IMG/VR virus record: IMGVR_UViG_3300020579_000010
Length of the DNA: 64,000 nucleotides
Origin: an uncultured virus (IMG/VR IMGVR_UViG_3300020579_000010)
Taxonomy: Duplodnaviria > Heunggongvirae > Uroviricota > Caudoviricetes
Direction: 5' to 3' (one strand)
The notes beneath the pieces were generated by a model. It was not told the origin of the DNA, ran no database searches, and was given only the letters and a program-made list of their open reading frames with translations. This document shows positions 1 through 23,892 of this stretch, piece by piece. The position numbers and the translations under genes are program-made. Numbering within the stretch: position 1 is the first letter of the stretch; the number at the start of each line of letters is the position of its first letter.

Positions 1-1832
1 CCAGTGACACTGTCTGAGTAGTATACTCGACCACCAAGTGATTCGACCTTTTGCATTTGAAGCCACAGGGCTTCACGGGCGAGTGCGGTGATGTGAGATC
101 CGATGTGCGGCAAGAAGTAATCAGCTTCGTTGTATTTTGGTCTGCGCCATAAGATGGGCTCGTCATCTTTGGCGTAAGCGAGTTCTTCGGGTGATACCGC
201 TTGGGCGCCCTCTGGTTCACTTCCGATAGGAGCACTGAAAAGCTCATCTCGTTCGGGGGACATCAAGAATTTTCCGTACAAAGAGTTCCCTACTAATTTG
301 CACGTTTCAGACATGGGCTTATTATTTTTTGCTTTGGCATCCGCTCGTTTTGCAAATATGTCCTCCATCATCGATCTAATCAACGGAGACGATAGATACC
401 AAACGCTTCGGTGAATAAGAACTATGTGCCCTCCAATTTCTTCTATGTGTTTTAGCTCGCACCAGTCCCAACGCCCATAAAAGGTTCCCACTGGGAAAAC
501 TAGTTTGTCATCGTAGATGACTGCCAGTGGAGGGATATTGACAGTTTCTGGAATATAGACGATGGCCTCTACAAATCCAATGAGTCCATCATCTGCATAC
601 CCTTTGCACTCTTCAAGTGTCTGTGGTCCTCGTCCAGGTCCGAAGGAGTACTGAAGCTTGAGTGGCATCGGCTCCGTCATTGCGGCGGCGTAGCTCGAGT
701 TGCGGTCGTAGTATCTGAGTTTTCCTTCCTTTTCTTGATGGTGAAACACTTCCGTATGTCCACCCTTGCGAGCGCCGGTTGGAGAGATCGAAAGCCATGC
801 GTGTAGGCACCCATAAGGTGCTGCGGGACAAGGAGGTCTTTCTTGCTGAGCGTTCGGGCAACTTTTGAAGCATTTTTCCTGGCGGCACATTCCACAGAGG
901 CATCGGCATCCGGGGAAGTGTCTTTCGCGAGGAATTCCTGGTTTCCCATGAAAAGGATTAGGCTTTCCGTCTATGACCTCGGCTTTGAGGAATCGTGTTA
1001 GGTACTCGCGTCTAAATAAGTCCATCGATGAAGATGGGAGTGTCATTTTGAGATGACCGCCCAATATGTCGAGTTGTTTTCGTAGTTCATCCACGAGCCC
1101 TACTACCGTTTTGCAGTCTACACTGTTGTATTCTTCCCACGCTTTTCTCTCTTTGGTAGGAGTAGAAAGACCGCCAAGAGATTCGTTCATTTTGATTTTA
1201 CGCGTGTCTAGTACCAGCTTCTTTCCAATCGAATCTAGCGAGCCCGGCATGAGTCTCATCGAGTCTCGGAATACCCACTTACGAAGTCTACGCCTTTTGG
1301 GTTGTTTTTCCTTGTCTGCTACAGGCGCGGAATCATCTTCGTCATCATCGAAAGGTCGATCTTCGTTTTCTACTTTGAAGTCACGTTCAGTGATTTCAAG
1401 CTCTAGCAGTTGAGAGCCTGAGGCAATGATACGAACATCGAAGTCTCTGGCGTACTCTGGTCTACGTAACAATCTGAGGAAATGAAGGGCATCGAACCCT
1501 CCGAGGTTGTGTCCGTAGATGACGACCTTTGGATGTTTTTTGCTACGCGCTCGATATTGAAGTTTTCGTCCTTCTGGCGACTCCGTTAGCCACCTGAAGA
1601 ACTCACGCACGCAGCCACCATCCTTGAATGCACGCTCTGGATCGTTTGGGTTGAGATGCAATTCATCGAAGAAGCTTTTGTATTGCCCATTTACGTAAAC
1701 GCCAACCATGAAGGGTCGTTCGAAGCCCATCTCTTCTGAGAGAGGTTTTTTGCTTTCGATGTCGGCAGCGGCTGCAACGGTTTCGCGGTCTGGTCCGGGT
1801 TCGAACGGACGAAGGAGGCGGCTTATTCTCAT
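1..1832 (-). CDS. polB: Family B DNA polymerase, protein-primed type (pPolB); 3' part beyond the left edge, probable intein from nt 11
   Basis: Absent from the ORF track (no stop in window). Manual translation from ATG 1832: ExoI ADIES, ExoII YGHNLGGFD, FRDSMRLMPGSL, ExoIII YNSVD, KGGHTEVF, motif A YDRNSSY, motif B KLVGNSLYGKF, HITALAR, motif C YYSD then SVTG. ATGA overlap with upstream gene. Confidence 0.92.
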   Translation of the reverse strand, partial: MRISRLLRPFEPGPDRETVAAAADIESKKPLSEEMGFERPFMVGVYVNGQYKSFFDELHLNPNDPERAFKDGGCVREFFRWLTESPEGRKLQYRARSKKHPKVVIYGHNLGGFDALHFLRLLRRPEYARDFDVRIIASGSQLLELEITERDFKVENEDRPFDDDEDDSAPVADKEKQPKRRRLRKWVFRDSMRLMPGSLDSIGKKLVLDTRKIKMNESLGGLSTPTKERKAWEEYNSVDCKTVVGLVDELRKQLDILGGHLKMTLPSSSMDLFRREYLTRFLKAEVIDGKPNPFHGKPGIPRERHFPGCRCLCGMCRQEKCFKSCPNAQQERPPCPAAPYGCLHAWLSISPTGARKGGHTEVFHHQEKEGKLRYYDRNSSYAAAMTEPMPLKLQYSFGPGRGPQTLEECKGYADDGLIGFVEAIVYIPETVNIPPLAVIYDDKLVFPVGTFYGRWDWCELKHIEEIGGHIVLIHRSVWYLSSPLIRSMMEDIFAKRADAKAKNNKPMSETCKLVGNSLYGKFLMSPERDELFSAPIGSEPEGAQAVSPEELAYAKDDEPILWRRPKYNEADYFLPHIGSHITALAREALWLQMQKVESLGGRVYYSDSVT

Positions 1833-3089: not shown

Positions 3090-3358
3090 GGCTGCGTGCG
3101 TTCGCGGCAGTACGTGTTGGCTTGGTGGATGACGTACTCGTTGAGCGCGCTCGTGATCGCCGCGTGCAGCGTCTTTCCGGTGCCGAAGTAGATGTGTTTG
3201 AACCTGGACTGGTGGTAGCCGAGGCGAACGGAGTACGTTTCGTCTTCGCCTTGCCACGCGAGGCTCAGGACCCGGAGCCTGCTTTGGGCGAGACGCTTAT
3301 CGACCTCGCCGAACGTCGTGTCCCCAGTGATGGTGGCACTGAAGCCTATGCCGACCAT
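3086..3358 (-). CDS. Hypothetical protein
   Basis: ORF tightly packed in the minus-strand operon. Confidence 0.6.
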   Translation of the reverse strand: MVGIGFSATITGDTTFGEVDKRLAQSRLRVLSLAWQGEDETYSVRLGYHQSRFKHIYFGTGKTLHAAITSALNEYVIHQANTYCRERTQP

Positions 3359-4038: not shown

Positions 4039-4237
4039 CTGTGGGTATTGTCAGTCCGCGTTCGCGTATCGGACGCGTGAAAGGCGAGTAACCTGTATGC
4101 CACAGCCGATCGAAAATGGGCAAGTCCTCTGCGTCAGGTTCTGCTCTTTGACGATTCGTCCCGACGGCCGAAAAGGTCTGCCAAATTTTCACGGACTTGA
4201 AGAAGTACTTCAAGGTTATTTGTATTCTACAACTTAG

Positions 4238-4590
4238 TGGAAGCGCTGGGAATCGAACCCAGGTCCAGCAAGTTTCGTATCCCATCATCTACGTACATAT
4301 TCGGTGATTGGCTCCACCGACAGAAGGGGCTGAATCGGTTTCCCGATTTTCACCGTCCACCAGCGAGGTTTTGCGAGACTCGCGCTCGTAATGGGTAATG
4401 GTGACTCTGTTGGGTTCACACCAATGACGATACCGAGTCGTCTACGTCATTGATGGCGAAGCGGTTCTTAGGCCGCGTTCGCGATTGCGTTGTCGTTCGC
4501 AATTGGGCTTGCTCGATTGGTCAGACCGGATCGAGCGCCGCTCATACGCAGATGGGATCTTCCTCTCACTGTCGAAACCATTTCGCTCCC
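4238..4590 (-). ncRNA. ssrA: tmRNA, tag peptide ANDNAIANAA* (4500-4468)
   Basis: 5' GGGAGCGAAATGGTTTCGAC; 3' GGACCTGGGTTCGATTCCCAGCGCTTCCA; acceptor stem with G3-U70; internal tag ORF. Confidence 0.95.
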
Positions 4591-4619: not shown

Positions 4620-5246
4620 TTAGCGCAAAGTGACGTCCTCGCCAAGATCGTCGGCATCGGGTGCTTCGGGCGGAGGCGGCGGCTTCGGTTTTGCTTCGCG
4701 GCCGAAGACGGCCTTGTGTCGTGATTGGTTTCTACGGAGCGGTCCTTGCCAGCGCTCCCAGCGATGGAACATGCCGCAGAGGATGCAGGCGTCGCGAAAT
4801 CCCTTCGACGAGACGTAGACGACGTTTTCGCCGAGCGGCTTGGACCAGTCGCAGACGATGTAGCTGCTGCTCCCGTGGAGCATCACCTGGAAGTTGCCGA
4901 GCCTGAGGGGTTTGCCGTGCACATCGGTCGGAAGGAGAATGAGTTTTGAGTAGAAAGTCGCGCCTTTGTAGCGCGGGGCCTTCTCGATGACTTGGCCCTT
5001 GTCGTCCTTCCATTTCCGGAAAGACCTCTTCGCAAACCCCACATCCTTGCGAAGCCCTGGAAGAATCGCTTGAGGCTCGACCTCTTGGTCTTCGAAGTCG
5101 TAGACGACTGGGCGTCCCGAGTAGTTGGGATCGGCTTCGTAGAGCGCGAGCTGCTTAGCGCTCCCGACATCGACCCAGTCGCGTCGACGATTGCATGGCT
5201 CGTCGCAGCCATTGAGACTACTATCAGTTGTTTGGGCGGCGCTCAT
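4620..5246 (-). CDS. Hypothetical protein; its 5' coding region carries a CRISPR repeat copy
   Basis: 208 aa, ATGA-coupled to 5243..5563. Confidence 0.65.
   Translation of the reverse strand: MSAAQTTDSSLNGCDEPCNRRRDWVDVGSAKQLALYEADPNYSGRPVVYDFEDQEVEPQAILPGLRKDVGFAKRSFRKWKDDKGQVIEKAPRYKGATFYSKLILLPTDVHGKPLRLGNFQVMLHGSSSYIVCDWSKPLGENVVYVSSKGFRDACILCGMFHRWERWQGPLRRNQSRHKAVFGREAKPKPPPPPEAPDADDLGEDVTLR
5183..5218 (+). repeat. Solitary CRISPR repeat (35/36 identical to array consensus)
   Basis: GTCGACGATTGCATGGCTCGTCGCAGCCATTGAGAC. Confidence 0.95.
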
Positions 5247-5563
5247 GGTTTGCGTTCTTTTATGATGTATTCAGGACGGTCCGGTCCTTGGCTAATCCAA
5301 GTTGGCATTTCAAGTTCGCACGGTACGCCGAAGATATAAATGCGGTAGTTTCCGATATGCGTTCCTTCCATTCTGAGACATCCAGGTATCTTCATAAGCA
5401 TGGGAACTTCTTGGAAGTCGACGATGAATAATTTAGGACCTTTATGGTCGCGTAGGCGTTGGATGAAGTGCTGGAAGTATTTCCTGTCCCAGTCTTCTAA
5501 GTCTTCTAAGTCTTGAATCGGCGACCGTGCAAGGTAGCTATCGATCTCTTCTTCAGCGCTCAC
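5243..5563 (-). CDS. Hypothetical protein
   Basis: 106 aa, operon packing. Confidence 0.6.
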   Translation of the reverse strand: MSAEEEIDSYLARSPIQDLEDLEDWDRKYFQHFIQRLRDHKGPKLFIVDFQEVPMLMKIPGCLRMEGTHIGNYRIYIFGVPCELEMPTWISQGPDRPEYIIKERKP

Positions 5564-5564
5564 G

Positions 5565-6101
5565 TCAAACCGCTCTCAGCCTGCGGAGCGCTCGAGCGAA
5601 GCTCTCGTTGCAAAGCGCGCCTTCGCGTCTGCGTTGGATGTGGTCTACAACTTCACGCCCGGGCTTCTTCGTGAGCTTCATCGTCGCGAGCGCGACGACG
5701 AGCCCGCTGCGGTTGAAACCCGCAAAACACGTGCATAGTACATGTTTTCCGGCTCGTACGCGGCGCTCGACCTTTCCACTGACAAAGGCTGCTTCCTTGA
5801 GATGGGGCATCGTGAGCTCGCAGTCGTCACTCAGAAAACGAATGACCTCGATGGAACGCGGAAGGATGGGCTGGAACTCTTGCGCGCAGAGTACGACGAC
5901 GTCGAAGCCGTGCATGTCGGCCGTGTGAACGGTGCTCGCAGCGCCTTGCCAGAGCGATCCTTGCTGAGTAGGAGGTTTTCCGCTGATGATGCGATCGGCG
6001 TCGAACGTCGCACGCGGAGGGTTCGGAACTGGGCGAGCTCTTCTGGGCGAGTAGTACACGGACTCCAGGTCGGGTGACGGAGAAGAAAATGAAGAGGTCA
6101 T
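5565..6101 (-). CDS. Dual-specificity/tyrosine protein phosphatase
   Basis: CX5R loop VLCTCFAGFNRSG; start chosen at ATGA overlap 6101. Confidence 0.85.
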   Translation of the reverse strand: MTSSFSSPSPDLESVYYSPRRARPVPNPPRATFDADRIISGKPPTQQGSLWQGAASTVHTADMHGFDVVVLCAQEFQPILPRSIEVIRFLSDDCELTMPHLKEAAFVSGKVERRVRAGKHVLCTCFAGFNRSGLVVALATMKLTKKPGREVVDHIQRRREGALCNESFARALRRLRAV

Positions 6102-6301
6102 CGCGTTGTTCGGTGAGTGGCACGGCGGAATAGCCACGCGGGTCTCTTCCTGTAGAACGCGGCGGCGCGGCGAGCGGTGGAGTAGGCGATAGCGAGGATT
6201 TGCTTCGCGCTTCGCTTTCTTCGCCTCGTGCGATTTTCGTGATGAAGGGTGCGAACGTTCTTTTCGAACGCGGCTTGGGTGCAGCGATGAATGAGCGGCA
6301 T
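6098..6301 (-). CDS. Small basic protein
   Basis: 67 aa, coupled to the phosphatase gene. Confidence 0.55.
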   Translation of the reverse strand: MPLIHRCTQAAFEKNVRTLHHENRTRRRKRSAKQILAIAYSTARRAAAFYRKRPAWLFRRATHRTTR

Positions 6302-6571: not shown

Positions 6572-7285
6572 CTACGATGCCGTCCGCGGCTCGCTGCCGC
6601 TGTTCGTTTTCGCAGGCTCTTCGGGCGATTGTTGCTGTTCTTGCACAGGCTGACGTGGTGCGATGGCAGCGGCTCGCGGCATGGGTACGATACGATGAGG
6701 GGCCGCAGGAGCCTGAGCTTGAGTTACGGGTGGAGAAGCCGCGTAGTGCTGGGGCTCAGGCTCTGGCGCGTTTTGCTGCTGTTGCTGCTGTTGCTGTTGC
6801 TGTTGCGGCTGTGGCTGTGGCTGCGGCTGCGAGCCTGTGAGCGGTTCGAGCAGGCTCGGATCAGGCGGCATGCCCGCAACCCAGCGCTGAGCGATGCCTT
6901 GCAGAACGAACTCGGTTTGGACGATGTCTTCGAGGTACTGTTTGTTGATCTCGAGCGCTTGACCAACGACAGCGTACCACTTGCCGAGCATGTCGACGTC
7001 GGCGGCAGCGCGCGCCCTTTGCTCGGGGGTCATCTGCGGATCTTGCATCGCGTGGTGAGCGGCGTTGGCGAGGTTGCCACATTCATTTTGAAGCCTCTGG
7101 AGCACGCGTCTTCGACCACGAATCTCTTCGCCGTAACGAAGGATGCGACCTTCGCTTTGGTCTTTGAGCTCTGCGAGGCTCGCGATGGGAGCAAAGATCT
7201 GAGGACGACGGTGCGGTGGACCGCCAAATGGCGGCTGCTGCGGGTTACCGTAGGGAGGCTGTTGCGGGGGCGGGGGCGATTGCAT
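6572..7285 (-). CDS. Gln/Pro-rich protein with helical core
   Basis: 237 aa, QP and polyQ tracts. Confidence 0.7.
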   Translation of the reverse strand: MQSPPPPQQPPYGNPQQPPFGGPPHRRPQIFAPIASLAELKDQSEGRILRYGEEIRGRRRVLQRLQNECGNLANAAHHAMQDPQMTPEQRARAAADVDMLGKWYAVVGQALEINKQYLEDIVQTEFVLQGIAQRWVAGMPPDPSLLEPLTGSQPQPQPQPQQQQQQQQQQQNAPEPEPQHYAASPPVTQAQAPAAPHRIVPMPRAAAIAPRQPVQEQQQSPEEPAKTNSGSEPRTAS

Positions 7286-7308
7286 GGAATTGGACCTCTT
7301 TGAAAGCG

Positions 7309-8118
7309 TTATCCTGTTTCACTGATGGGCGGTGTAGATGTCAAGACCTCTTTTGGACGTTGAGCATCGAGTAGCTCTTTCATTTTCGAGACAGGAGCAC
7401 CGAGCAACCACATGAAGCAGGATGAGCATTGCCACTTCTCTCTGAAATCGATGAGCGCTGCAATTTCCCATTCATCGAACTGAGTTCCTGCATGTAACCA
7501 TGGGTCGAGTGGACGTCTAGTAACTTGGGTGACGACATTGGCGCTTTCATGTCGCGCCTGGAAGTGGGTTCTCTTGCAGCCTTCGCATGGGGGTTCTTGC
7601 TTGGCTGCTTCGGTTTGTTTGTTTTCCCATTCCAGATGCGCTTGTCTCGCTTTGTAAGCTTGAAGTGTAGGTTGATGTCTTTTGAATAGCCGATAGATCC
7701 GTTCGGTTTCATCGGCGGAGGTCGAAATACCTTGTAAGACAGCGAGAACGGGAGTGTGCAATGGGTCAGCGGCAAAGAAATCGTAGAGCTGTTTATGAAT
7801 TCCCTGCGCTGCTTTTTCGACTTCGGGTTTCAATTTTTTGATGAGGGATTCTACTTCTGATTTCTTGATTCGAAATCCACGAGCTGGCCATTGCGCTCTA
7901 GTCGCTGAGATGCGCTTTCCGACAATGGCTCGCCTGACCGATTCTAAACAAGTCAGACCTTTGATATTGTGCAACTTGAATTGGGCGGTAGCTTCTTCGA
8001 TCGTAAGCAGTCCTTCATCGATGTCTTTTTGGGTTTGTTCCTCTAAAGTGAGTCGCTCTCGCGGCTTCGGTTTAGTTTTGGAACGCAGTTTTAGGCTGGC
8101 GTTCATCATCTTCGTCAA
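7309..8118 (-). CDS. Protein with excisionase/MerR-like HTH and CxxC pairs
   Basis: LLTIEEA...VRRAI...FRIKKSEV pattern; visibly lower GC. Confidence 0.55.
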   Translation of the reverse strand: MTKMMNASLKLRSKTKPKPRERLTLEEQTQKDIDEGLLTIEEATAQFKLHNIKGLTCLESVRRAIVGKRISATRAQWPARGFRIKKSEVESLIKKLKPEVEKAAQGIHKQLYDFFAADPLHTPVLAVLQGISTSADETERIYRLFKRHQPTLQAYKARQAHLEWENKQTEAAKQEPPCEGCKRTHFQARHESANVVTQVTRRPLDPWLHAGTQFDEWEIAALIDFREKWQCSSCFMWLLGAPVSKMKELLDAQRPKEVLTSTPPISETG

Positions 8119-10373: not shown

Positions 10374-11001
10374 GTCAACGATTGCACGGCTCGTCGCAGC
10401 CATTGAGACCCGGTACGCAGGCGGCATCGTCGCCTTCAGCACGTGGAGTCGACGATTGCACGGCTCGTCGCAGCCATTGAGACACGACGAGGGCAGGTAC
10501 AAGTGGGCGATCGTCTACGAGACGTCGACGATTGCACGGCTCGTCGCAGCCATTGAGACACGTGATGATGCCGTTGGGGAGCGCCACAGGTTGCGGCGGT
10601 CGACGATTGCACGGCTCGTCGCAGCCATTGAGACGAGGGTCCACACGAGTACGCTCACAGCGCCCGCCAGCAGGTCGACGATTGCACGGCTCGTCGCAGC
10701 CATTGAGACAGCCCACGAACGAAGGTGAGAGCAAAGGTGTCACCGCGTCGACGATTGCACGGCTCGTCGCAGCCATTGAGACGCAACTGTGCGCGAGCGT
10801 CTCGTCGGTGCCGCGCGCGTCGACGCTTGCACGGCTCGTCGCAGCCATTGAGACCTCCCAGCAGGGATTCCAAGTACACGTGTCCTTGGGCGTCGACGAT
10901 TGCACGGCTCGTCGCAGCCATTGAGACAGACCGCACCTGTCGTGCCGCCCGTCGCGCCGCTCACGGTCGACGATTGCACGGCTCGTCGCAGCCATTGAGA
11001 C
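10374..11001 (+). CRISPR. CRISPR array, 9 repeats (36 bp) and 8 spacers (36-40 bp)
   Basis: Repeat GTCGACGATTGCACGGCTCGTCGCAGCCATTGAGAC at 10374, 10448, 10524, 10599, 10674, 10747, 10819, 10892, 10966; single variants in repeats 1 and 7. Strand inferred from the ATTGAGAC 3' end. Confidence 0.98.
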
Positions 11002-11020
11002 TCCTCTCTGGAGAGAGTTG

Positions 11021-12886
11021 TCATTCTGCGCTGTTATCGCTGGCATTGCGAAAGGTTCCCATTCGCTGCTGCTTTTCGGTCCGAAGACGTCTTGCTTTTT
11101 TCCATCTCCCCTCTGATTTCGCCGCTTTGGCATTGCGAGCGCCTCCGGCATTTTGCGCTTTACGCCACCGCTCGCAAAGGTTGTTGCTCGCACGCACGTC
11201 CTGGTCTTGCTTGGCACCACACGACGAGCACGTTACATCGATTTCAGTTTCCGCATCCAATCCACGATCGACGACGCCACACGCTGTGCACGTTCGCGTT
11301 GTATCTTCACATGGCGCAAGCTCGACACGTCCGCCGTGGGAGATAAAAGCCTCTTCGAGGGCTTGGCGTAGCTCGCTTGTTGCTGCGAGGTGTCTGTTTG
11401 ACCTTGCCGTCTCGTTCTCTGGTTCCATCTCCGTTTGAGCTCGGCGGGCGAACTTTCGGAGATCCATGGGTTTGGTTCGGTCATCTTCTGCTCGATCTTC
11501 GAGTACCAGCACCTCGTATTTTTCCGCGAGCCGAGCCCCGAACACTCGGTACTTTTCGCGTCGCCGTCGCAGCGCCTTGGTGCGCTGATCGCATTCCCAT
11601 TGGTAGTGCTGGCTGTCCCAGTACCTCCAAGACTCGAGCAAATCGAAGACCTCTTCATCGTTTGCGAAGCGCTCCTTGCTCCAACGCTTCGAGAGCGAGA
11701 CAAGCCTAGCCGGTGAACGCCACACATGCATATGCAGCGTCGACATGGAAAGCCACGCTGGAACTTCGAGCGTCGCAAGCTTGTCTCGCACAATGAGACG
11801 AATCGCATCAAACCTCTTGTCTCGAATGCTCCTGATTTCATCTGCCTTGCGTAAACGCGTAATCTCATGAGGACTAAGACGAAGCTCACCAATGTCCTGA
11901 CCGTCTTCTGATGCGTAGGCGCACACACGGAGACCTGCGTCGTCATCCGTGACAACACGCCAGCCGATGTCGACTCCCACGGCTCCTTCGACTCCGCCGC
12001 CGCGTCCCCACCCGTGCTCTTCGCGAATTGCGCTCGTTACGTTCGGGCATTCAATCGTAAGCTCGGCGGACCATATCTCACGCGAGCTGTGGCGGCGCAA
12101 AGAAACGTTGCATCTTTTGATACGCGCCGCGGGCGGAAGAGGTCGATGCATGATGAGAGGCCAAGATGCCCAAACTGGCTTGCGTCCTTCTGATCCGACA
12201 CGTAGCGAAAGAGTGCGAAGAGTTCGCACGTGCTTGCCGTCGTTCCAATTCGGTTCGCTGATGCGAAGTCGTGTATCTTCAGAGCTGAGCACCTCGCCAG
12301 GCGTCATGCCATTTTGAATTTGCATTCCGATTTGACCTTCGCCAGTCCAGCGTTCAAAGCGAGGATCATTCGGCGTAGAATCGTCGTAAAGCGGCTGCTT
12401 CGCAGCGGCCTTGACCTCGTCTTCGGCAAGTAGATACGAGCCCCAATACGACGTCGTGAGCGCTCGGGCTCCACGAACGAGCTCGGCTGCGCGTTCGTTG
12501 ATGACATCGCGTGCAGAAATCATTTCTGGACGAACACGCGCTCGGCAATCATAGAGTGCTTGCGATGTCGTACGTCTCACGATTCGGGCCTGTTTGACGC
12601 GTTCTTTCATCACGTTTGTTTCGGATCGGCTGCGAGACTTGCTGCGAGCAAGGCGAATGGCTTGGCGTGACTCTTCCAGCTCCACGAGCGCTGCACGTGA
12701 AGCTGCCATCGCCGTAGCAAGCTCAGAATGTTGCTCCTCGACGTTTCTCATCGCCGTACGTCGACCTCTTTCGATTTCGATGAGCGTGTTGCGATAGTCG
12801 TGTTTGGCACGAAGCTGCGCCCGTACGAGCGCTTCGTTCTGAATGGGTCGAAGAAGACCGTACTTGTAGACTCGAATCATCGTCAT
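11021..12886 (-). CDS. cas12m: Compact type V effector, Cas12m (V-U1/V-M)-like, 621 aa
   Basis: VYKYGLLRP, YWGSY, FERWTGEGQIGMQIQNGM, PLIMHRPLP motifs; RuvC-I GVDIGWR, RuvC-II LVLED, CxxC..CxxC, RuvC-III DQDVRASNNL; adjacent to array. Start re-assigned to ATGA overlap at 12886. Confidence 0.8.
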   Translation of the reverse strand: MTMIRVYKYGLLRPIQNEALVRAQLRAKHDYRNTLIEIERGRRTAMRNVEEQHSELATAMAASRAALVELEESRQAIRLARSKSRSRSETNVMKERVKQARIVRRTTSQALYDCRARVRPEMISARDVINERAAELVRGARALTTSYWGSYLLAEDEVKAAAKQPLYDDSTPNDPRFERWTGEGQIGMQIQNGMTPGEVLSSEDTRLRISEPNWNDGKHVRTLRTLSLRVGSEGRKPVWASWPLIMHRPLPPAARIKRCNVSLRRHSSREIWSAELTIECPNVTSAIREEHGWGRGGGVEGAVGVDIGWRVVTDDDAGLRVCAYASEDGQDIGELRLSPHEITRLRKADEIRSIRDKRFDAIRLIVRDKLATLEVPAWLSMSTLHMHVWRSPARLVSLSKRWSKERFANDEEVFDLLESWRYWDSQHYQWECDQRTKALRRRREKYRVFGARLAEKYEVLVLEDRAEDDRTKPMDLRKFARRAQTEMEPENETARSNRHLAATSELRQALEEAFISHGGRVELAPCEDTTRTCTACGVVDRGLDAETEIDVTCSSCGAKQDQDVRASNNLCERWRKAQNAGGARNAKAAKSEGRWKKARRLRTEKQQRMGTFRNASDNSAE

Positions 12887-13092
12887 TTTTCTCGCCTCTT
12901 CTCTTTTTGGCGCTGCTCTTCGATGATTGCGTCGAGACCTTTTCGCAGCGCAGATCGAAAGATGTCGGTGCGTGTAACCGTTGCAAATCCATGCTCCGTA
13001 GCCCGCTTGGCACAGCCACTTGCGTCCTCGACCCACTTTCGAGGCATCTTGATCGTCATCGACTGAGTGTTATCGCTGCGAGGTCTGGGCAT
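12883..13092 (-). CDS. Ribbon-helix-helix-like regulator
   Basis: TIKMP..W...TRTDIFRSALRKGL; paralog of 45458..45691. Confidence 0.7.
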   Translation of the reverse strand: MPRPRSDNTQSMTIKMPRKWVEDASGCAKRATEHGFATVTRTDIFRSALRKGLDAIIEEQRQKEKRREK

Positions 13093-18345: not shown

Positions 18346-18419
18346 GGTGGATGTAGCCAAGTGGTCAAGGCGCTGCGTTGTGGCCGCAGTATGCGCGGGT
18401 TCGATCCCCGTCATCCACC
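18346..18419 (+). tRNA. tRNA-His(GTG)
   Basis: Cloverleaf, G-1, ctgcg-ttGTGgc-cgcag. Confidence 0.92.
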
Positions 18420-18722
18420 CTGATGGGCGAAAAAAGTTCTTGCGCGTTTCGAAAATCCATGTCGTAGTAGCTGAAGAGATTCCGATGCATTCCATAGCGA
18501 AATCCACCTTACTGACCCGGAGGCCGCTGAGCCAATCAGCAGCGCTTTCAGGGTCGTGGTGCACCCCTTCGGGTATCGCGAAGCGCGTCATTTTGTGCCC
18601 AGTTGGACTCGATAGCTCGACACCCATGTATCCGGCCTCCCTCGGCGAACCCAAGTTCGCGACGCGCAATCAGGAGGCCGGTACCTAGAGGCGGATTTTC
18701 TTCTCGCGCAAGTAGCGCAAAG

Positions 18723-18762
18723 GAAAGCCGCCTCGGGAAATCGAGAGCGGCTTTCGTCGTTT
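18723..18762 (+). terminator. Terminator-like hairpin in the tRNA-array leader
   Basis: GAAAGCCGC...GCGGCTTTC followed by GTCGTTT. Confidence 0.45.
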
Positions 18763-18904
18763 CAGGGCTCAAAAATTCAAAACGCTCGGATAACGCACTA
18801 GGGATTTGTCCTTTGCGTGACTGCCGATCACAGGAGACGTGTATCCAATGCAACCTATCACCGAACGTGAGAGCTATCGGAGCTCCGACTGCTCATATCC
18901 CAAT

Positions 18905-18987
18905 GGGGTGCGTTCGGAGCAGTGGAAGCTCTAGCCGGTTGTAACCCGGTGGCCTTATGGCAAGTGGTTCGACTCCACCGTGCCCCA
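18905..18987 (+). tRNA. tRNA-Tyr(GTA)
   Basis: Cloverleaf, long variable arm. Confidence 0.88.
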
Positions 18988-19057
18988 CGAAGAAAGACCC
19001 AGTCATGAAACTCAAACGCAAGAACGTGCCCGTGAAAGACGGGCCAAAAACCAAGGA

Positions 19058-19130
19058 GGATTCGTAGCTCAATCGGCAGAGCAATCGGCTTTTACCCGAG
19101 AGGTTGTGGGATCGTTGCCCACCGAATCCA
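19058..19130 (+). tRNA. tRNA-Lys(TTT)
   Basis: Cloverleaf. Confidence 0.88.
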
Positions 19131-19135
19131 CATTT

Positions 19136-19208
19136 GGGTTCGCAGCTCGATTGGCCGAGCAGCCGGTTCTTACCCGGAAGGTTGAGGGATCATCCCCCTC
19201 CGAACCCA
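19136..19208 (+). tRNA. tRNA-Lys(CTT)
   Basis: Cloverleaf. Confidence 0.85.
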
Positions 19209-19215
19209 CAAGTGA

Positions 19216-19286
19216 TCGGGCTTCGTCTAATGGCAAGACATCCGCCTCTGGAGCGGAGAATGAGGGTTCGACCCCCTCGGCCCGAA
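19216..19286 (+). tRNA. tRNA-Gln(CTG)
   Basis: Cloverleaf. Confidence 0.9.
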
Positions 19287-19414
19287 CCGGCGCTCGCGGA
19301 AGCGCTTGACCCTTGAAAACTTGAAAGGACGTGGCGCGTGCGGGCTCCCTCGAGCTTGCATGGGTAGCCTCTCCTGTTCGTCAAGAAACACGGGAGCGCC
19401 CTCGGCTCCCACAT

Positions 19415-19489
19415 TCACGGAGTCTCAGTGCTGGTACTGATCCGCGGCTGTTAACCGCGCCGTCCCTGGTTCGATTCCAGGTCCGTGAG
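19415..19489 (+). tRNA. tRNA-Asn(GTT)
   Basis: Cloverleaf. Confidence 0.9.
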
Positions 19490-19513
19490 CTTAGAGCGTG
19501 CTAATGGATAACT

Positions 19514-19909
19514 GTGCTAGACAACAGATTGCTTCCGCCCAGCAAAAGACGTCTTACCCCCTATCGAAGAGAATATCTGACGATTGCGATGGTAGAGCGT
19601 CGACGTCAGATGAAGTCCAGAGCAGTGGCCTACAAAGGCGGTCGCTGCCAGAAATGTGGATACAAGAAGTGTCAAGCCGCTTTCGAGTTTCATCATCCTG
19701 ATCCGTTGGAAAAGGATTTCAATATTTCTAGGTTTGGTACCAAGTCTTTCGAGAGACTCAAACCAGAATTGGACAAGACGATTCTCCTTTGCGCGAATTG
19801 TCACCGGGAAGTGCACGACGAGATCAACGTCGCATCTCTTCGAGTTCGGAAGTCGAAGTTTGACCGTGTACCGAAACCTGCAAGAGGTGCGCGCTCTCAT
19901 AAAAAGTAA
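19514..19909 (+). CDS. HNH endonuclease within the tRNA array
   Basis: CQKCGY...FEFHH...LLCANCHREVH; start uncertain. Confidence 0.88.
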   Translation: MLDNRLLPPSKRRLTPYRREYLTIAMVERRRQMKSRAVAYKGGRCQKCGYKKCQAAFEFHHPDPLEKDFNISRFGTKSFERLKPELDKTILLCANCHREVHDEINVASLRVRKSKFDRVPKPARGARSHKK

Positions 19910-19910
19910 T

Positions 19911-19980
19911 GCCGACGTGACGAGGCGTCACCGCTCCCTTGTAGCGAGCGAGGCTTGGGTTCGAGATCCCATCGTCGGCT
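19911..19980 (+). tRNA. tRNA-Thr(TGT)-like, degenerate
   Basis: Acceptor GCCGACG/CGTCGGC, T-arm present; irregular D and anticodon arms. Confidence 0.55.
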
Positions 19981-19984
19981 CTGC

Positions 19985-20058
19985 GCCCGTATAGCTCCAA
20001 GGCGGAGCACTGGTTTCGTAAATCAGTGGGAGCGGTTCGATTCCGCTTGCGGGCTCCA
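19985..20058 (+). tRNA. tRNA-Thr(CGT)
   Basis: Cloverleaf, CCA encoded. Confidence 0.9.
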
Positions 20059-20059
20059 T

Positions 20060-20131
20060 GCGCGATTCTTCTAGTGGTCAGGATGGTGGCTTTTCAACCC
20101 GCCAAGACGAGTTCGATTCTCGTATCGCGCG
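20060..20131 (+). tRNA. tRNA-Glu(TTC)
   Basis: Glu-type D arm; anticodon loop slightly enlarged. Confidence 0.7.
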
Positions 20132-20220
20132 CTACTTCAAAAACGTGGGGGCCTAAAAACCTCCGACCGCGCAAAGCGGCCCCGTTGCTCTATCCGGCGG
20201 CGAATAAGATGGAGCGCTAT

Positions 20221-20296
20221 GTCCCTATCGTCTACTTGGCAAGGACACCTGTTTCTCAATCAGGAAAACAGAGTTCAAATCTCTGTAGGGACGCCA
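20221..20296 (+). tRNA. tRNA-Glu(CTC)
   Basis: Cloverleaf, CCA. Confidence 0.88.
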
Positions 20297-20297
20297 T

Positions 20298-20373
20298 GGT
20301 CAGTTAGCTCAATTGGTAGAGCGCGAGTTTGAAGCACTCGGCGTAGGGGGTTCGAATCCCTCACTGACCACCA
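20298..20373 (+). tRNA. tRNA-Phe(GAA)
   Basis: Cloverleaf, CCA. Confidence 0.93.
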
Positions 20374-20377
20374 GTGA

Positions 20378-20453
20378 CTAGGTGTAGCTCAATCTGGTAG
20401 AGCGCTCCGTTTGGGTCGGAGATATAAGAGTTCAAATCCCTTCATCTAGACCA
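20378..20453 (+). tRNA. tRNA-Pro(TGG)
   Basis: Cloverleaf, CCA. Confidence 0.88.
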
Positions 20454-20454
20454 T

Positions 20455-20538
20455 GCCACCGTGGCGAAGTTGGTATACGCGTAGCGTTGAGGTCGCTATG
20501 TCCGAAAGGGCGTGTAGGTTCGAACCCTATCGGTGGTA
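20455..20538 (+). tRNA. tRNA-Leu(GAG)
   Basis: Cloverleaf, long variable arm. Confidence 0.92.
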
Positions 20539-20542
20539 CTGA

Positions 20543-20617
20543 GGGCACGTAAGTCTAATTGGCAAAGCTTCGATGCCTAAAACATCGAGTGTGTCCGTTC
20601 GAATCGGACCGTGCCTA
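20543..20617 (+). tRNA. tRNA-Leu(TAA), short variable arm
   Basis: cgatg-ccTAAaa-catcg. Confidence 0.75.
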
Positions 20618-20621
20618 CTGA

Positions 20622-20696
20622 GTGAGCGTAAGTCTAATTGGTAAAGCTCCGAAGCTCAAACCTTCGGGTTTGTGAGTCCGAATCTCACCGCTCACA
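20622..20696 (+). tRNA. tRNA-Leu(CAA), short variable arm
   Basis: cgaag-ctCAAac-cttcg. Confidence 0.8.
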
Positions 20697-20707
20697 CCGT
20701 CAAACAT

Positions 20708-20780
20708 CTCCTCGTCTCGGCGGATTCCGAGCAGCTGTTTCCTAAACAGTTTGTACCGTGTTCGACTCACGGCGAGGAGG
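20708..20780 (+). tRNA. tRNA-Arg(CCT)
   Basis: Cloverleaf. Confidence 0.85.
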
Positions 20781-20784
20781 CTAC

Positions 20785-20857
20785 GCCCTCGTATGCATCT
20801 GGCGAGGCAGCTCCGCTGTCTACGGAGTGAGGCTCGGTTCGATTCCGGCCGAGGGCG
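20785..20857 (+). tRNA. tRNA-Asp(GTC)
   Basis: Cloverleaf. Confidence 0.88.
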
Positions 20858-20861
20858 CTAT

Positions 20862-20932
20862 ACGGCGAAGTGCAGGGCACAACAGAGATTCCAATCCTCT
20901 GGAAGAAAGTTCGATTCTTTCTCGCCGTGCCA
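20862..20932 (+). tRNA. tRNA-Trp(CCA)
   Basis: Cloverleaf with short D arm, G73, CCA. Confidence 0.75.
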
Positions 20933-20933
20933 T

Positions 20934-21004
20934 GGGTCGATAACACAACGGGCGTGTGCTAGCGTCGCAAGCTAGAAATGCGAGTTCGATTCTCGCTCGA
21001 TCCA
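20934..21004 (+). tRNA. tRNA-Ala(CGC)
   Basis: Cloverleaf, G3-U70. Confidence 0.88.
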
Positions 21005-21017
21005 CTGCTACGTATTT

Positions 21018-21091
21018 GGGTCCTTAGCTCCAATTGGGAGAGCGCCAGGTTTGCACCTTGGAGGTTGTCGGTTCGATCCCGACAGGATCCA
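21018..21091 (+). tRNA. tRNA-Ala(TGC)
   Basis: Cloverleaf, G3-U70. Confidence 0.92.
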
Positions 21092-21092
21092 C

Positions 21093-21239
21093 CGAGTCAC
21101 TGTCACTCATGCAGCGCATACACGCAAATTCGCCTTTGGAGCGAGAGGTCATCGGTTCGAGTCCGATCACGAAGCTTCGGCTTCGCGTAGCTCAGTTGGT
21201 AGAGCGCTTACAACGCATTGCATACTCGACAGTCACTCG
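21093..21239 (+). ncRNA. Circularly permuted tRNA-like RNA (YrlA/Y-RNA-like tRNA mimic)
   Basis: Order: anticodon-like arm, T arm, acceptor stem closed by TTCG, D arm; all inside a long 5'/3' stem CGAGTCACTGTC/GACAGTCACTCG. Confidence 0.75.
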
Positions 21240-21242
21240 ATT

Positions 21243-21314
21243 GCTGACGTAGCTCCAAGGCGGAGCGCCATCTTGGTATGATGGAGGGATGGGGTCCGAT
21301 TCCCCTCGTCAGCT
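21243..21314 (+). tRNA. tRNA-Thr(GGT)
   Basis: Cloverleaf. Confidence 0.85.
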
Positions 21315-21421
21315 CTGGCGCAGCCGCTCTCAGGAGCTAGGCAAACTTGTTCGTGCATGGGCAAGCAAGCTGAAAAGCACTCCGCGGAGGGTGGATGAAA
21401 GGTCCACGGCGCCGCCAGTAC

Positions 21422-21492
21422 GCGGGAATGGCAGAATGGTTATGCACTCGGTTTCCACCCGAGATATCGGAGTTCGATTCTCCGTCCCCGCT
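21422..21492 (+). tRNA. tRNA-Gly(TCC)
   Basis: Cloverleaf. Confidence 0.9.
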
Positions 21493-21496
21493 CTAT

Positions 21497-21566
21497 GCAG
21501 GTGCAGCTCGAAGGTCGAGCACGTGGTTGCCATCCACGAGGCGGGGTTCGATTCCCCTCACCTGCT
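21497..21566 (+). tRNA. tRNA-Gly(GCC)
   Basis: Cloverleaf. Confidence 0.88.
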
Positions 21567-21571
21567 CTAGT

Positions 21572-21640
21572 GAGTCTGTTCGCTGGCGCGGCGACGGGTC
21601 TGCAAAATCCGTTTCGAGGGTCCAATTCCCTCCAGACTCT
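21572..21640 (+). tRNA. tRNA-Cys(GCA)
   Basis: Cloverleaf, reduced D arm, U73. Confidence 0.75.
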
Positions 21641-21644
21641 CTAT

Positions 21645-21716
21645 GCTCTCGTCCTAATGGATTAGGCGACCGCCTTCTAAGCGGTATGGTTGCGTGTTCG
21701 AATCACGCCGAGAGCG
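21645..21716 (+). tRNA. tRNA-Arg(TCT)
   Basis: Cloverleaf. Confidence 0.88.
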
Positions 21717-21848
21717 CGAAGTGGTAAGTGGTGATGTCGTGCATACAGTCCACACCGGGCTTGTAACCTGGTCTTTGTGGTGACTCACTGAGTGCATGAC
21801 AGAACCAGAAGTCGCTAGTCACGATTTCAGCTTTCCACTTCGATATCT

Positions 21849-21922
21849 CTCTCCGTCGTAGCGGATCTACGCATGGGTCTACGAAGCCCATTGTCTGTGT
21901 TCAACTCACAGCGGAGAGACCA
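21849..21922 (+). tRNA. tRNA-Arg(ACG)
   Basis: Cloverleaf, CCA. Confidence 0.88.
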
Positions 21923-21931
21923 ATTCTCATT

Positions 21932-22002
21932 GCCTTCGTCATAGTGGATCTATGCCCGACGCTTCGAACGTCGATGTCTGAGTTCGAGTCTCAGCGAAGG
22001 CT
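21932..22002 (+). tRNA. tRNA-Arg(TCG)
   Basis: Cloverleaf. Confidence 0.85.
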
Positions 22003-22003
22003 C

Positions 22004-22080
22004 CGCGGAGAGAGGTAGACATAGTCCTCACTAGCGCTCATAACGCTAGCAATCTGGGTGCAACACCAGCTCCGCAACCA
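22004..22080 (+). tRNA. tRNA-Met(CAT), initiator-like
   Basis: C1xA72 mismatch, CCA. Confidence 0.8.
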
Positions 22081-22081
22081 A

Positions 22082-22150
22082 CGCTGCGAGCATGGGATGC
22101 CGCTGGTTCTCATACGACCAAGTGCGACGGTCCGAATCCGTCCGCAGCGA
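22082..22150 (+). tRNA. tRNA-Met/Ile2(CAT)
   Basis: Cloverleaf, reduced D arm. Confidence 0.7.
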
Positions 22151-22182
22151 CGGGGCTCCGGATCACGGTCCGTCCCTCTAAC

Positions 22183-22257
22183 GCCAACGTAGACCAATTG
22201 GTAGGAGTCGCCTCGTTTAGACCGAGGACAGTGTGGGTCCGAATCCCTCCGTTGGCA
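22183..22257 (+). tRNA. tRNA-Leu(TAG), short variable arm
   Basis: cctcg-ttTAGac-cgagg. Confidence 0.85.
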
Positions 22258-22261
22258 CTAT

Positions 22262-22335
22262 TGGGGTATCGTCTAACGGTAAGACGGCAGATTTTGAATC
22301 TGCTTATTAGAGTTCGATTCTCTATGCCCCAACCA
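22262..22335 (+). tRNA. tRNA-Gln(TTG)
   Basis: Cloverleaf, CCA. Confidence 0.92.
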
Positions 22336-22336
22336 T

Positions 22337-22412
22337 CAAGGTGTAGCTCAATCTGGTAGAGCGCTCCGTTCGGGTCGGAGATATAGGAGTTCAAATCCCC
22401 TCACCTTGACCA
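22337..22412 (+). tRNA. tRNA-Pro(CGG)
   Basis: Cloverleaf, CCA; near-copy of tRNA-Pro(TGG) at 20378. Confidence 0.9.
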
Positions 22413-22413
22413 C

Positions 22414-22484
22414 AGGTCCATCGTCCAACGGCAGGGCACCGGTTCTACACTCCGGGGATGGCGGTTCGAACCCGTCTGGACCTA
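22414..22484 (+). tRNA. tRNA-Val(TAC)
   Basis: Cloverleaf. Confidence 0.8.
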
Positions 22485-22488
22485 CTGA

Positions 22489-22561
22489 GGGAGGCGAGTA
22501 GGCTGGTGCCTGCGCCGTCTCGACAAGGCGGATTCGATGGGTTCGATCCCCGTGCCTCCCA
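22489..22561 (+). tRNA. tRNA-Val(GAC)
   Basis: Cloverleaf. Confidence 0.85.
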
Positions 22562-22565
22562 CTAG

Positions 22566-22641
22566 CCGCCGGTAGTTCAATAGGTTTCAGAACCTTCGGC
22601 TCATAACCGAACATGTACCAGTTCGAATCTGGTCTGGCGGA
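22566..22641 (+). tRNA. tRNA-Ile2/Met(CAT)
   Basis: Cloverleaf. Confidence 0.85.
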
Positions 22642-22675
22642 CAGTCTGCTAATCTTCTTATTCGTCATTCAACTC

Positions 22676-22751
22676 GGGCGAATCGTCCAATGGTTTAGGA
22701 CCGCTCTCTGATAAGGAGCAAATCACAGTTCAATTCTGTGTTCGCCTACCA
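22676..22751 (+). tRNA. tRNA-Ile(GAT)
   Basis: Cloverleaf, CCA. Confidence 0.9.
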
Positions 22752-22768
22752 ACCCGAAAGAAACCGTC

Positions 22769-23296
22769 ATGTCTCCCTCATCCACTCTCATCCTCAATCA
22801 CTACATGGTTCCGCATAGAGTCTGCTCTTGGCAAGACGCCATCACTGAGCTCTTCACTGGCAAGGTGGAGATCATCGACTGGTACGATGAAGTCGTCTAC
22901 TCGAACGCGGAGCGCGGCATCACGATGAAGATGCCAGCCGTTGCTCGACTCTTGAAGCCCGTCAGCGCGTTCAAGAAGGGTGTGAAGTTTTCGCGAGTCA
23001 ACGTCATGGCTCGAGACAACTTCGTCTGTCAGTACTGCGGCAAGCGTCACGCGATGGGTAACCTCAACTACGACCACGTCGTTCCGCGTGTACAGGGCGG
23101 CAAGACCGTATGGGACAACATCGTAACGTCATGTTACGAGTGCAATGACAAGAAGGGCGCTCGCACCCCCGAGCAAGCGAAGATGAAGCTCATTCGCAAG
23201 CCCTTCCGTCCCAAGACTCTTCCGCTCGCACAGCCCGTGCTTGCGATGAAGAACATCCTCGCAGAGTGGCAACCGTACGTGGTTGCCACGATGTAA
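22769..23296 (+). CDS. HNH endonuclease (McrA-like)
   Basis: RDNFVCQYCG...NYDHVVPRVQGGKTVWDNIVTSCYECNDKKG. Confidence 0.93.
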   Translation: MSPSSTLILNHYMVPHRVCSWQDAITELFTGKVEIIDWYDEVVYSNAERGITMKMPAVARLLKPVSAFKKGVKFSRVNVMARDNFVCQYCGKRHAMGNLNYDHVVPRVQGGKTVWDNIVTSCYECNDKKGARTPEQAKMKLIRKPFRPKTLPLAQPVLAMKNILAEWQPYVVATM

Positions 23297-23325
23297 ACGA
23301 AGCGTCGTCCTACGGATCGACATCT

Positions 23326-23399
23326 CGGAGTGTGGCTCAGTCTGGTAGAGCGCTCGGTCGGGGTCCGAGAGATCACAGGTTCAAATCCTGTCACTCCGA
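23326..23399 (+). tRNA. tRNA-Pro(GGG)
   Basis: Cloverleaf. Confidence 0.92.
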
Positions 23400-23410
23400 C
23401 TACGAATTAT

Positions 23411-23496
23411 GGAAAACGAACTAGCTAGGAGCTAGACCCGTTTGGAATACGGTGTGGCGTCGCAAGCACGCTGGGATTCGAGTTCTCCGTTTTCCG
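23411..23496 (+). tRNA. tRNA-Ser(GGA)
   Basis: Long variable arm, G73. Confidence 0.85.
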
Positions 23497-23524
23497 CTCA
23501 TCGACGAACAGGTAACGTCCCCAT

Positions 23525-23610
23525 GGAAGAGAAACCAGCAAGGTGCTGGGCCTGCCTCGAAAACAGTGCGGCGTCATCGCGACGCTGGGGATCGTCTCCT
23601 CTCTTTTCCG
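23525..23610 (+). tRNA. tRNA-Ser(CGA)
   Basis: Long variable arm, G73. Confidence 0.8.
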
Positions 23611-23614
23611 CTAC

Positions 23615-23697
23615 GGAAAGCGCCGCTCATGGAGAGCACCCAGCTTTGAACACTGGTGGGAGCCGCAAGGTTAGGAGTTCGATCCTCTCGCTTTCCG
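23615..23697 (+). tRNA. tRNA-Ser(TGA)
   Basis: Long variable arm, G73. Confidence 0.82.
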
Positions 23698-23701
23698 CTA
23701 C

Positions 23702-23787
23702 GGAAGTTGAACCCGCAAGGTGCGGGGCTCTCCTGCTAAGGGATGCGGCGTCATCGCGACGTTGTGGCTCGTCTCCACCAACTTCCG
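23702..23787 (+). tRNA. tRNA-Ser(GCT)
   Basis: Long variable arm, G73. Confidence 0.8.
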
Positions 23788-23892
23788 CTACACCGGCTTG
23801 TAGCTGGACGTTCACAGTAGGTCGCTACGCAGCGTAAAACCCCGCAAAACAGTGTTACGGGGTGTGGCACGGTGCGTGCTCTAGAAAGGAGC

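Follow-up and report, generated by a model that had tools for sequence, protein, structure and literature searches.

The stretch of DNA analysed here (the window) comprises 64,000 nucleotides of a large soil phage, which carries 31 tRNA genes, a tmRNA and PHROG matches and is represented by near-identical contigs of up to 128.9 kb. This phage possesses a CRISPR system of its own, consisting of a cas12m gene and a downstream array. In addition, one further copy of the array repeat is found in the phage genome 5.1 kb away from the array, inside a gene belonging to a tightly packed operon on the minus strand. The features considered in this work are as follows.

4620..5246, minus strand: gene of 208 aa hosting the repeat; homologues 52-99% identical, dN/dS 0.12
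5159..5182, minus strand: 3′ flank of the crRNA handle on the RNA, i.e. the guide position (GCGACUGGGUCGAUGUCGGG...); encodes RDWVDVGS, found in no homologue
5183..5218, minus strand: solitary Cas12m repeat (crRNA handle); 35/36 to the array repeat, the sole such copy in the window
5219..5246, minus strand: start codon and codons 2-9, 27 nt that precede the handle; read as plus strand, the guide supposed in the preliminary description
5243..5563, minus strand: upstream gene of 106 aa, its TGA overlapping the ATG of the 208-aa gene as ATGA; 71% homologue
7286..7308, minus strand: intergenic gap, the 'empty' counterpart of the lone repeat in the related contig L004; CTTT in the window versus TAAC plus 36 nt in L004
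10374..11001, minus strand: CRISPR array of nine repeats and eight spacers of 36-40 nt; first repeat 19 nt past the cas12m stop
11021..12886, minus strand: cas12m, 621 aa from Met 12886 (longest ORF to 13036, 671 aa); RuvC D-E-D

Searching the window for the array repeat at up to three mismatches returned ten matches, nine in 10374..11001 and one at 5183..5218, compared with 0.00 expected in shuffled sequence. This last copy shares the orientation of the array and differs from its consensus by a single base (35/36), a C>T change at 5196 on the plus strand, just as the preliminary description had stated for a solitary 36-nt repeat. In a window-wide ungapped scan, no further copy exceeded 23/36, a level comparable to the 21-24/36 reached by 20 shuffles, and no second, degenerate repeat near the solitary copy rose above the shuffle level (≤23/36) anywhere in the 64 kb. 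Since no partner repeat is present above this level, the copy is truly solitary and does not belong to a mini-array of which only one half is recognisable. The junction between repeat and gene is bridged by three separately assembled contigs (L001-L003), and the flanking gene order is the same in relatives; it is not an assembly chimera.

The repeat begins 28 nt past the A of the ATG and extends from base 2 of codon 10 to base 1 of codon 22, being read as residues 10-21 of the 208-aa protein (SLNGCDEPCNRR). It thus lies inside the minus-strand gene 4620..5246 without breaking its frame, as had been described before. In the sequence that leads from the repeat to the protein's conserved core, no in-frame ATG, GTG or TTG was found; in the absence of such an alternative start, the repeat must be translated. 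Read on the minus strand, the repeat is open in all three frames, and an ORF (10375..11220) even runs through the array.

The product of cas12m matches PDB entry 23vw_A (E 4.3e-57), Cas12m2 (4.8e-24) and UnCas12m4a (5e-20), and contains the TNB domain PF07282 of Pfam. When aligned with 23vw, its RuvC residues are D-E-D, while Cas12m2 has H-D-D at these positions, and the D, E and D columns are nearly invariant among 35 effector homologues. A Cas12m of 71% identity (P0006) is also known from a related contig. From these sequence comparisons the effector, earlier described as a Cas12, is classified as a D-E-D-type Cas12m (type V-M), predicted to be a DNA binder and not a cutter. According to published work, Cas12m effectors bind DNA flanked by a PAM and block transcription without cutting, and are described as needing no tracrRNA and as processing their own pre-crRNA inside the repeat (PMC11013384; PMC10442227); for MsCas12m, a Cas12m-dependent cleavage within the repeat has been described (PMC11013384). 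The reported PAMs are T- or C-rich (PMC11013384; PMC10442227), that of Cas12m2 being 5′-TTN (PMC10442227). A 2024 review records type V-M in plasmids and some prophages, and a preprint of September 2026 describes a phage-borne Cas12m in a myxophage, likewise with eight spacers and no target.

In the array itself, the last repeat (10374-10409), at the end distal to cas12m, is degenerate. None of the spacers has a target in the window, in the collected Cas12m loci or in INPHARED (one 32-nt match, E 0.6), and therefore no PAM could be derived. Repeat 8 in plus-strand order (10819-10854) has the linker GCAAGCG in place of GCAAUCG; this variant is absent from the near-identical contig L003, which indicates that the array is polymorphic between strains. 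In the contigs of a soil metatranscriptome, exact pieces were found only on the tmRNA and on the 5′ end of cas12m, and they have no bearing on expression at the repeat. The tmRNA contig is exact over 261 nt (4247-4507) at a depth of 34, and the cas12m contig is exact over 258 nt (12791-13048) at a depth of 2.9, extending 12 nt past the longest ORF start (13036) and 162 nt upstream of Met 12886. The latter weakly hints that cas12m is transcribed, DNA carry-over being possible. Soil DNA runs X1-X9 contain 63-94% of the sequence words of the window.

For Ms, Tf, Ap, Un and GoCas12m, the crRNAs are written 5′-3′ in the source with the repeat preceding the spacer (Table S5, PMC11013384). In all five, ..CAAY precedes a short G/C stem with its loop and returning strand; a linker of 7 nt then leads to a tail of 5 nt that is complementary to the loop, followed by AC (PMC11013384). 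In the reported structure of Cas12m2, a pseudoknot joins C(-22)..C(-17) to G(-8)..G(-3) and the 5′ end is disordered (PMC10442227). The minus strand of the window repeat, GUCUCAAU-GGCU-GCGACG-AGCC-GUGCAAU-CGUCG-AC, fits this published pattern point for point. Accordingly written, the minus-strand RNA of the solitary copy is GUCUCA-AUGGCU-GCGACG-AGCCAU-GCAAU-CGUCG-AC, with an AUGGCU/AGCCAU stem, a loop CGACG that pairs with the tail CGUCG, and the terminal AC. The loop-tail pairing is complete on the minus strand (5/5) versus 4/5 on the plus strand, where the loop pairs only with the 5′ end.

The strand was further checked in 41 IMG/VR loci encoding relatives of the window's Cas12m. An array is present in 28 of them, in every case on the cas12m strand and 24-750 nt downstream of cas12m. 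Full loop-tail pairing was observed on the cas12m strand for 24 of the 26 scorable consensus repeats (the window's included) and on the other strand for 6/26; the two exceptions are a second, inverted array and a consensus with a 1-base offset. The degenerate repeat of the window's array, being at the cas12m-distal end, agrees with this. By these comparisons the crRNA strand is the minus strand, that of both cas12m and the 208-aa gene, and consequently the lone repeat is sense in the mRNA of this gene. The preliminary description had taken the plus strand as the RNA and, as its guide, the stretch 5219-5245, which is antisense to the start codon; the published crRNAs and the 28 phage loci contradict both assignments, as the crRNA is read from the minus strand.

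It had also been noted that the C>T change lengthens the hairpin. This is correct for the plus strand and incorrect for the crRNA strand, on which the array repeat already pairs A7-U24 and U8·G23, and the G23>A change in the solitary copy only turns the U·G into a U8-A23 pair. At the RNA level the change is G>A; it does not affect the fold, and the structure stays that of the array repeat. The minimum-free-energy fold of the 36-mer was no better than that of shuffles (z -0.4 to -0.7) with a program that cannot score pseudoknots. Among the array repeats at L013:11801-12550, two forms occur, GGCU..AGCC and GGCC..GGCC; two paired stem positions have here changed in a compensatory way, which lends support to the fold on the strand of cas12m.

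The homologues of the 208-aa protein form four clusters at 99, 80, 70 and 52% identity, the 99% cluster belonging to the same phage population. Comparison with the homologue in L004 gave a dN/dS of 0.12 over 147 core codons (dS 1.3). Combined, the four clusters and the low dN/dS indicate that the gene is real and under purifying selection. The protein yielded no family match in Pfam, NCBIfam or PHROG and no Atlas lead, and the AlphaFold model is too poor for a structure search (pLDDT 47.7), with a pLDDT below 50 for the N-terminal residues 1-37. The same operon includes a gene with a dual-specificity phosphatase domain at 5565-6137 on the minus strand (PF00782, E 3.5e-08; phrog_10650).

Homologues P0002-P0004, P0130 and P0131 contain neither the 12-residue segment encoded by the repeat nor the RDWVDVGS after it, and the segment is absent from all non-identical homologues, a possibility already raised in the preliminary description. 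In these repeat-less proteins, which start with MS.., the conserved DPNYSG comes after 13-20 residues, versus 38 in the window. Compared with P0131 (MSDDTDPIDAQLALYR..), the window protein is ~19-21 residues longer, which equals the repeat plus ~18-24 nt of its 3′ side. The alignments thus identify the element as an insertion into the variable N-terminal tail of the 208-aa gene product, and the insert is most likely an array fragment made up of the repeat and the start of a spacer, as judged from a short protein alignment. L004, a syntenic contig of 5 kb with ~75% DNA identity, has neither the repeat in this gene nor the 106-aa ORF. Contigs of 2597 and 2911 nt are found both among those encoding homologues of the 106-aa ORF and among those encoding repeat-less 204-aa homologues. 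Since the 106-aa gene therefore also lies beside repeat-less homologues, the gain of the repeat and the difference in the 106-aa ORF are separate events. The element is kept in three contigs, which represent near-identical strains, and is missing from all homologues more distant than these; it may simply be young.

L004 does contain a lone 36-mer at another position (1302-1337, plus strand), in a gap of 59 nt whose neighbouring genes are homologous to 7309..8118 and 6572..7285 of the window. It lies on the gene-sense strand, and the RBS and ATG of a Q-rich gene follow directly after it. This copy matches the array repeat of the window at 32/36 and its solitary copy at 33/36. The four differences from the array consensus comprise two bases at the 5′ end, one loop base, for which G·U pairing with the tail is kept, and G23>A; two of them hence fall within the dispensable 5′ end, and the other two leave the pairing unaffected. 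The corresponding empty site in the window reads cTTT followed by CAAAGAGGTCCAATTCCATG, which is identical to the guide position of L004 at 17/20 bases, including all of bases 1-9.

Lone copies were also found in other Cas12m phages. The 94-kb L033/G002 has one perfect lone copy on the cas12m strand, 7.7 kb upstream of its array, located in or before a putative ORF with an in-frame ATG downstream of the copy; a ParB-like assignment of this ORF had no Pfam support and was dropped. The fragment L046/G003 has two lone copies flanking an ORF as well as a two-repeat mini-array, and G004 (153 kb, the record of L014) has 35 handle copies in three array-like clusters with at least seven dispersed. These copies of L033/G002, L046/G003 and G004 are on the cas12m strand and, like that of L004, resemble the window copy in lying within phage operons on the transcribed strand. 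In L050, a 33/36 lone copy is on the strand opposite to cas12m. No lone copy outside the array was present in G001, G005 and G006, three of the six whole phage records examined, and thus the feature is not general to Cas12m phages. Searching IMG/VR for the repeat core gave 0 exact matches, and 0 with a degenerate pattern covering the L004 variant. The copies in other phages lie between genes or just before starts, while that of the window lies after a start and is translated; because of these differing positions, a common role of the lone copies is not obvious.

In G004, one and the same block, TTGCAGTG.GAG...ATG, comes after each of two dispersed copies (L062:2930-2957 and 3129-3156), which looks as though handle and leader had been duplicated as a unit ahead of genes. 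The G004 contig encodes two cas12m homologues (L014 and L024).

With a 14-nt seed and up to two mismatches, each flank of the solitary repeat matched only its own site in the 64 kb searched of the ~129-kb genome, and in blastn-short searches of the window the best matches of both flanks were at chance level. The earlier suggestion of a regulatory guide thus finds no target for either flank in these 64 kb. On the whole-genome side, the searches covered the 64 kb and, from L003, a few kb more. For the flank 5219-5245 on the plus strand, the search extended over the window, and for the minus-strand flank over public collections as well. The 20-mer of the minus-strand guide had 0 matches in IMG/VR viral contigs and eight exact matches in 596 Gb of genomes, which are spread over eight unrelated taxa, share no PAM and agree at 4-9 of the next 20 bases; these look like chance. 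No sigma-70-like promoter was found within 1 kb of the repeat on either strand, and the 9.4 kb scanned contain three such sites, with 3.0 expected; the scan addresses sigma-70-like promoters, and phage-specific promoters escape it.

The identity, strand and intact fold of the element, its in-frame insertion and its absence in homologues are observed here, and from them we infer its binding and cutting by Cas12m and an effect on expression. We propose that the solitary repeat is a putative binding and processing site for Cas12m in the operon mRNA, derived from an inserted array fragment, an explanation to which we assign about an even chance. Of the three options offered in the preliminary description, namely a decoy, a regulatory guide and a Cas12-dependent RNA processing site, the last is the best reading, and the mRNA of the 208-aa gene probably doubles as a candidate site for Cas12m binding and cutting. 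Owing to the tight minus-strand operon, every operon transcript would contain the handle 27 nt past the start codon. Cas12m, encoded 6 kb upstream on the same strand, would then bind this lone handle in the same way as the repeats of its pre-crRNA and cut within the first few bases of the repeat. Such a cut would part the start codon from the remaining frame, or else the bound Cas12m would block ribosomes nine codons in, and in either case the output of the 208-aa protein would fall when Cas12m is present. The effector would be left with an orphan guide corresponding to codons 22-28 of the 208-aa gene, which is expected to be inert at its own locus and to be without a detectable target elsewhere. 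At its own locus, the orphan guide would be unable to bind because the end of the repeat, GAC, occupies the position of the T/C-rich PAM. As an intact handle and its cognate protein are made in the same cell, binding and cutting by Cas12m seem the most likely event.

The main rival explanation is that the insertion has no consequence at all. A fragment of the phage's own array, or of a relative's, could have been pasted into the disordered N-terminal tail, with any contact by Cas12m being immaterial, which we consider somewhat unlikely; the same holds for its supposed history, in which illegitimate or repeat-mediated recombination delivered a fragment that persists since it is recent, in frame and stop-free. 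Such a history agrees with the absence of the element from all non-identical homologues, with a site in a region of indels between relatives that has low model confidence, with three open minus-strand frames that make the insertion easily tolerated, and with the lack of a target, promoter or partner repeat in the searches above. However, an intact handle would be bound by the cognate protein unless their expression were separated in time. Moreover, several Cas12m phages have acquired lone copies independently, for the most part on the strand of cas12m, and the changes in the lone copies of both the window and L004 all spare the fold. A further alternative is that the handle turns the adjoining sequence into a guide against phages devoid of the insertion, either as a weapon against relatives or as a kind of homing like that of TnpB, whose relatives are reported to spread by targeting empty sites (10.1101/2023.11.30.569447). 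The carrier would be protected by having the repeat in place of the PAM. The window's empty site for the L004 element, with TTT, as in the Cas12m2 PAM 5′-TTN, ahead of the 17/20 identity, is the observation that speaks for it. Yet this is one case, in which TTN is expected by chance at ~1 in 16-20, the 17/20 identity is the plain homology of two phages, and the site is not a clean insertion (CTTT versus TAAC plus repeat). For the window's own element, the RDWVDVGS sequence has no counterpart in the repeat-less homologues at the protein level, the guide sequence is absent from the contig of a closer relative, which diverges at ~5160, and the public 20-mer matches are not credible. In addition, copying driven by repair is unlikely given that the characterised Cas12m are reported to bind and not to cut DNA (PMC11013384). 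Both the targeting of insertion-less phages and the protection of the carrier are accordingly judged improbable.

A lone repeat could also act as a decoy, a Racr-like RNA anti-CRISPR that soaks up the Cas12m of a host as counter-defence, or that of the phage itself as dosage control. Viral solitary repeat units are reported to inhibit CRISPR systems including type V-A (PMC10651486), and each bound handle with an inert guide would remove one effector molecule. A single copy in an mRNA would nevertheless be a weak sponge. The decoy option of the preliminary description also fails on three defining features, since the repeat matches the phage's own array, with cognate cas12m and array ~5-6 kb away in the same genome, has no adjacent sigma-70-like promoter, and is located inside a coding sequence; this makes a decoy very improbable. 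Hardly any weight is left for a plus-strand, crRNA-like RNA with the guide 5219-5245 antisense to the start codon, as first described. The flank does span the start codon, and the plus-strand repeat end UUGAGAC resembles the ..CUGAGAC of some Cas12m repeats (PMC11013384). On this strand, though, the loop-tail pseudoknot is incomplete (4/5 versus 5/5), and the loop pairs with the 5′ end, which is described as disordered or removed in known crRNAs (PMC10442227). Furthermore, the arrays are on cas12m's own strand in 28/28 array-bearing loci, no sigma-70-like promoter was found on the plus strand, and Cas12m targets PAM-flanked DNA, not mRNA.

The proposed site of Cas12m binding and processing could be extended to a broader role. 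Here, the phage Cas12m would in addition bind RNA and regulate the messages of the phage itself by means of handles in operons, which is a rather doubtful suggestion at present. Within this broader role, we treat with equal reserve the idea that handles are protein-operated switches or processing sites that can be written even into a coding frame. The handles of other phages lie just before ribosome-binding sites, while that of the window lies just after the start codon.

In comparison with the type V-M crRNA handle described by Omura 2023 (PMC10442227) and Bigelyte 2024 (PMC11013384), the window copy shares the 36-nt repeat, the short stem, the loop pairing with a 5-nt tail and the terminal AC. 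It is likewise on the cas12m strand, and a cognate D-E-D Cas12m and an array are present in the genome. In contrast, it stands alone 5 kb off the array in a translated frame, no repeat follows it, and its guide position is filled by the host gene's own sequence. Viral SRUs or Racrs are described as mimicking repeats to inhibit host immunity and as non-coding and not cas-associated (PMC10651486; Faure 2019 cited there), and as often promoter-driven, candidates having been chosen for an upstream promoter (Camara-Wilpert 2023, PMC10651486). The window element resembles them in being a single repeat of intact fold in a virus genome outside an array, but its sequence is that of the phage's own system, no promoter-like site adjoins it, and it forms part of a coding sequence, in sense orientation, within an operon.

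The crRNA-like regulators tracr-L, scaRNA, CreA and crlRNA are described as intergenic in the cas locus, partly matching a PAM-bearing target, usually a cas promoter (Shmakov 2023, PMC10120712). By analogy with these and with mini-arrays, the window element may be viewed as a standalone repeat able to load an effector with a non-immune guide, and Cas12m is by nature a repressor-type effector; the element differs in lying in a coding sequence and in having no target found. Empty-site targeting as by TnpB and omega RNA calls for a PAM or TAM and a guide target that flank the element and are joined where it is missing. The empty site of the L004 element in the window may be such a case (TTT plus 17/20 identity); for the window element, the repeat-less homologues, compared at the protein level, are without the guide-position sequence.

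In the literature searched, mostly outside subscription journals, we found neither lone Cas12m repeats nor a CRISPR repeat translated within a gene, and no description of a type V-M effector regulating or processing the mRNA of its owner. Viral solitary repeat units and crRNA-like regulators are already known (PMC10651486; PMC10120712), and what is new here is a Cas12m repeat of the phage's own system translated in frame. While the known viral solitary repeats are promoter-driven decoys against host immunity, that of the window belongs to the virus's own non-cutting Cas12m system. If Cas12m acts on the handle, this would be a CRISPR effector that regulates or processes the mRNA of its owner; if it does not, the locus is still a dated example of array fragments scattering through a phage genome. 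The tolerance of a 36-nt handle as protein sequence is also useful for embedding guide units in transcripts.

Two further regions of the window deserve mention. The block of 31 tRNA genes is located at 18347-23400 on the plus strand. Behind it, at 23411-23791, a unit of 90 nt occurs in three diverged copies, which are not called by ARAGORN. The tmRNA gene (4235-4590, minus strand; Rfam 108.5 bits, tag ANDNAIANAA) starts 29 nt past the stop of the repeat-bearing gene. A Cas12m cut upstream in the mRNA would give non-stop fragments beside this tmRNA gene, although the proximity is probably a coincidence.
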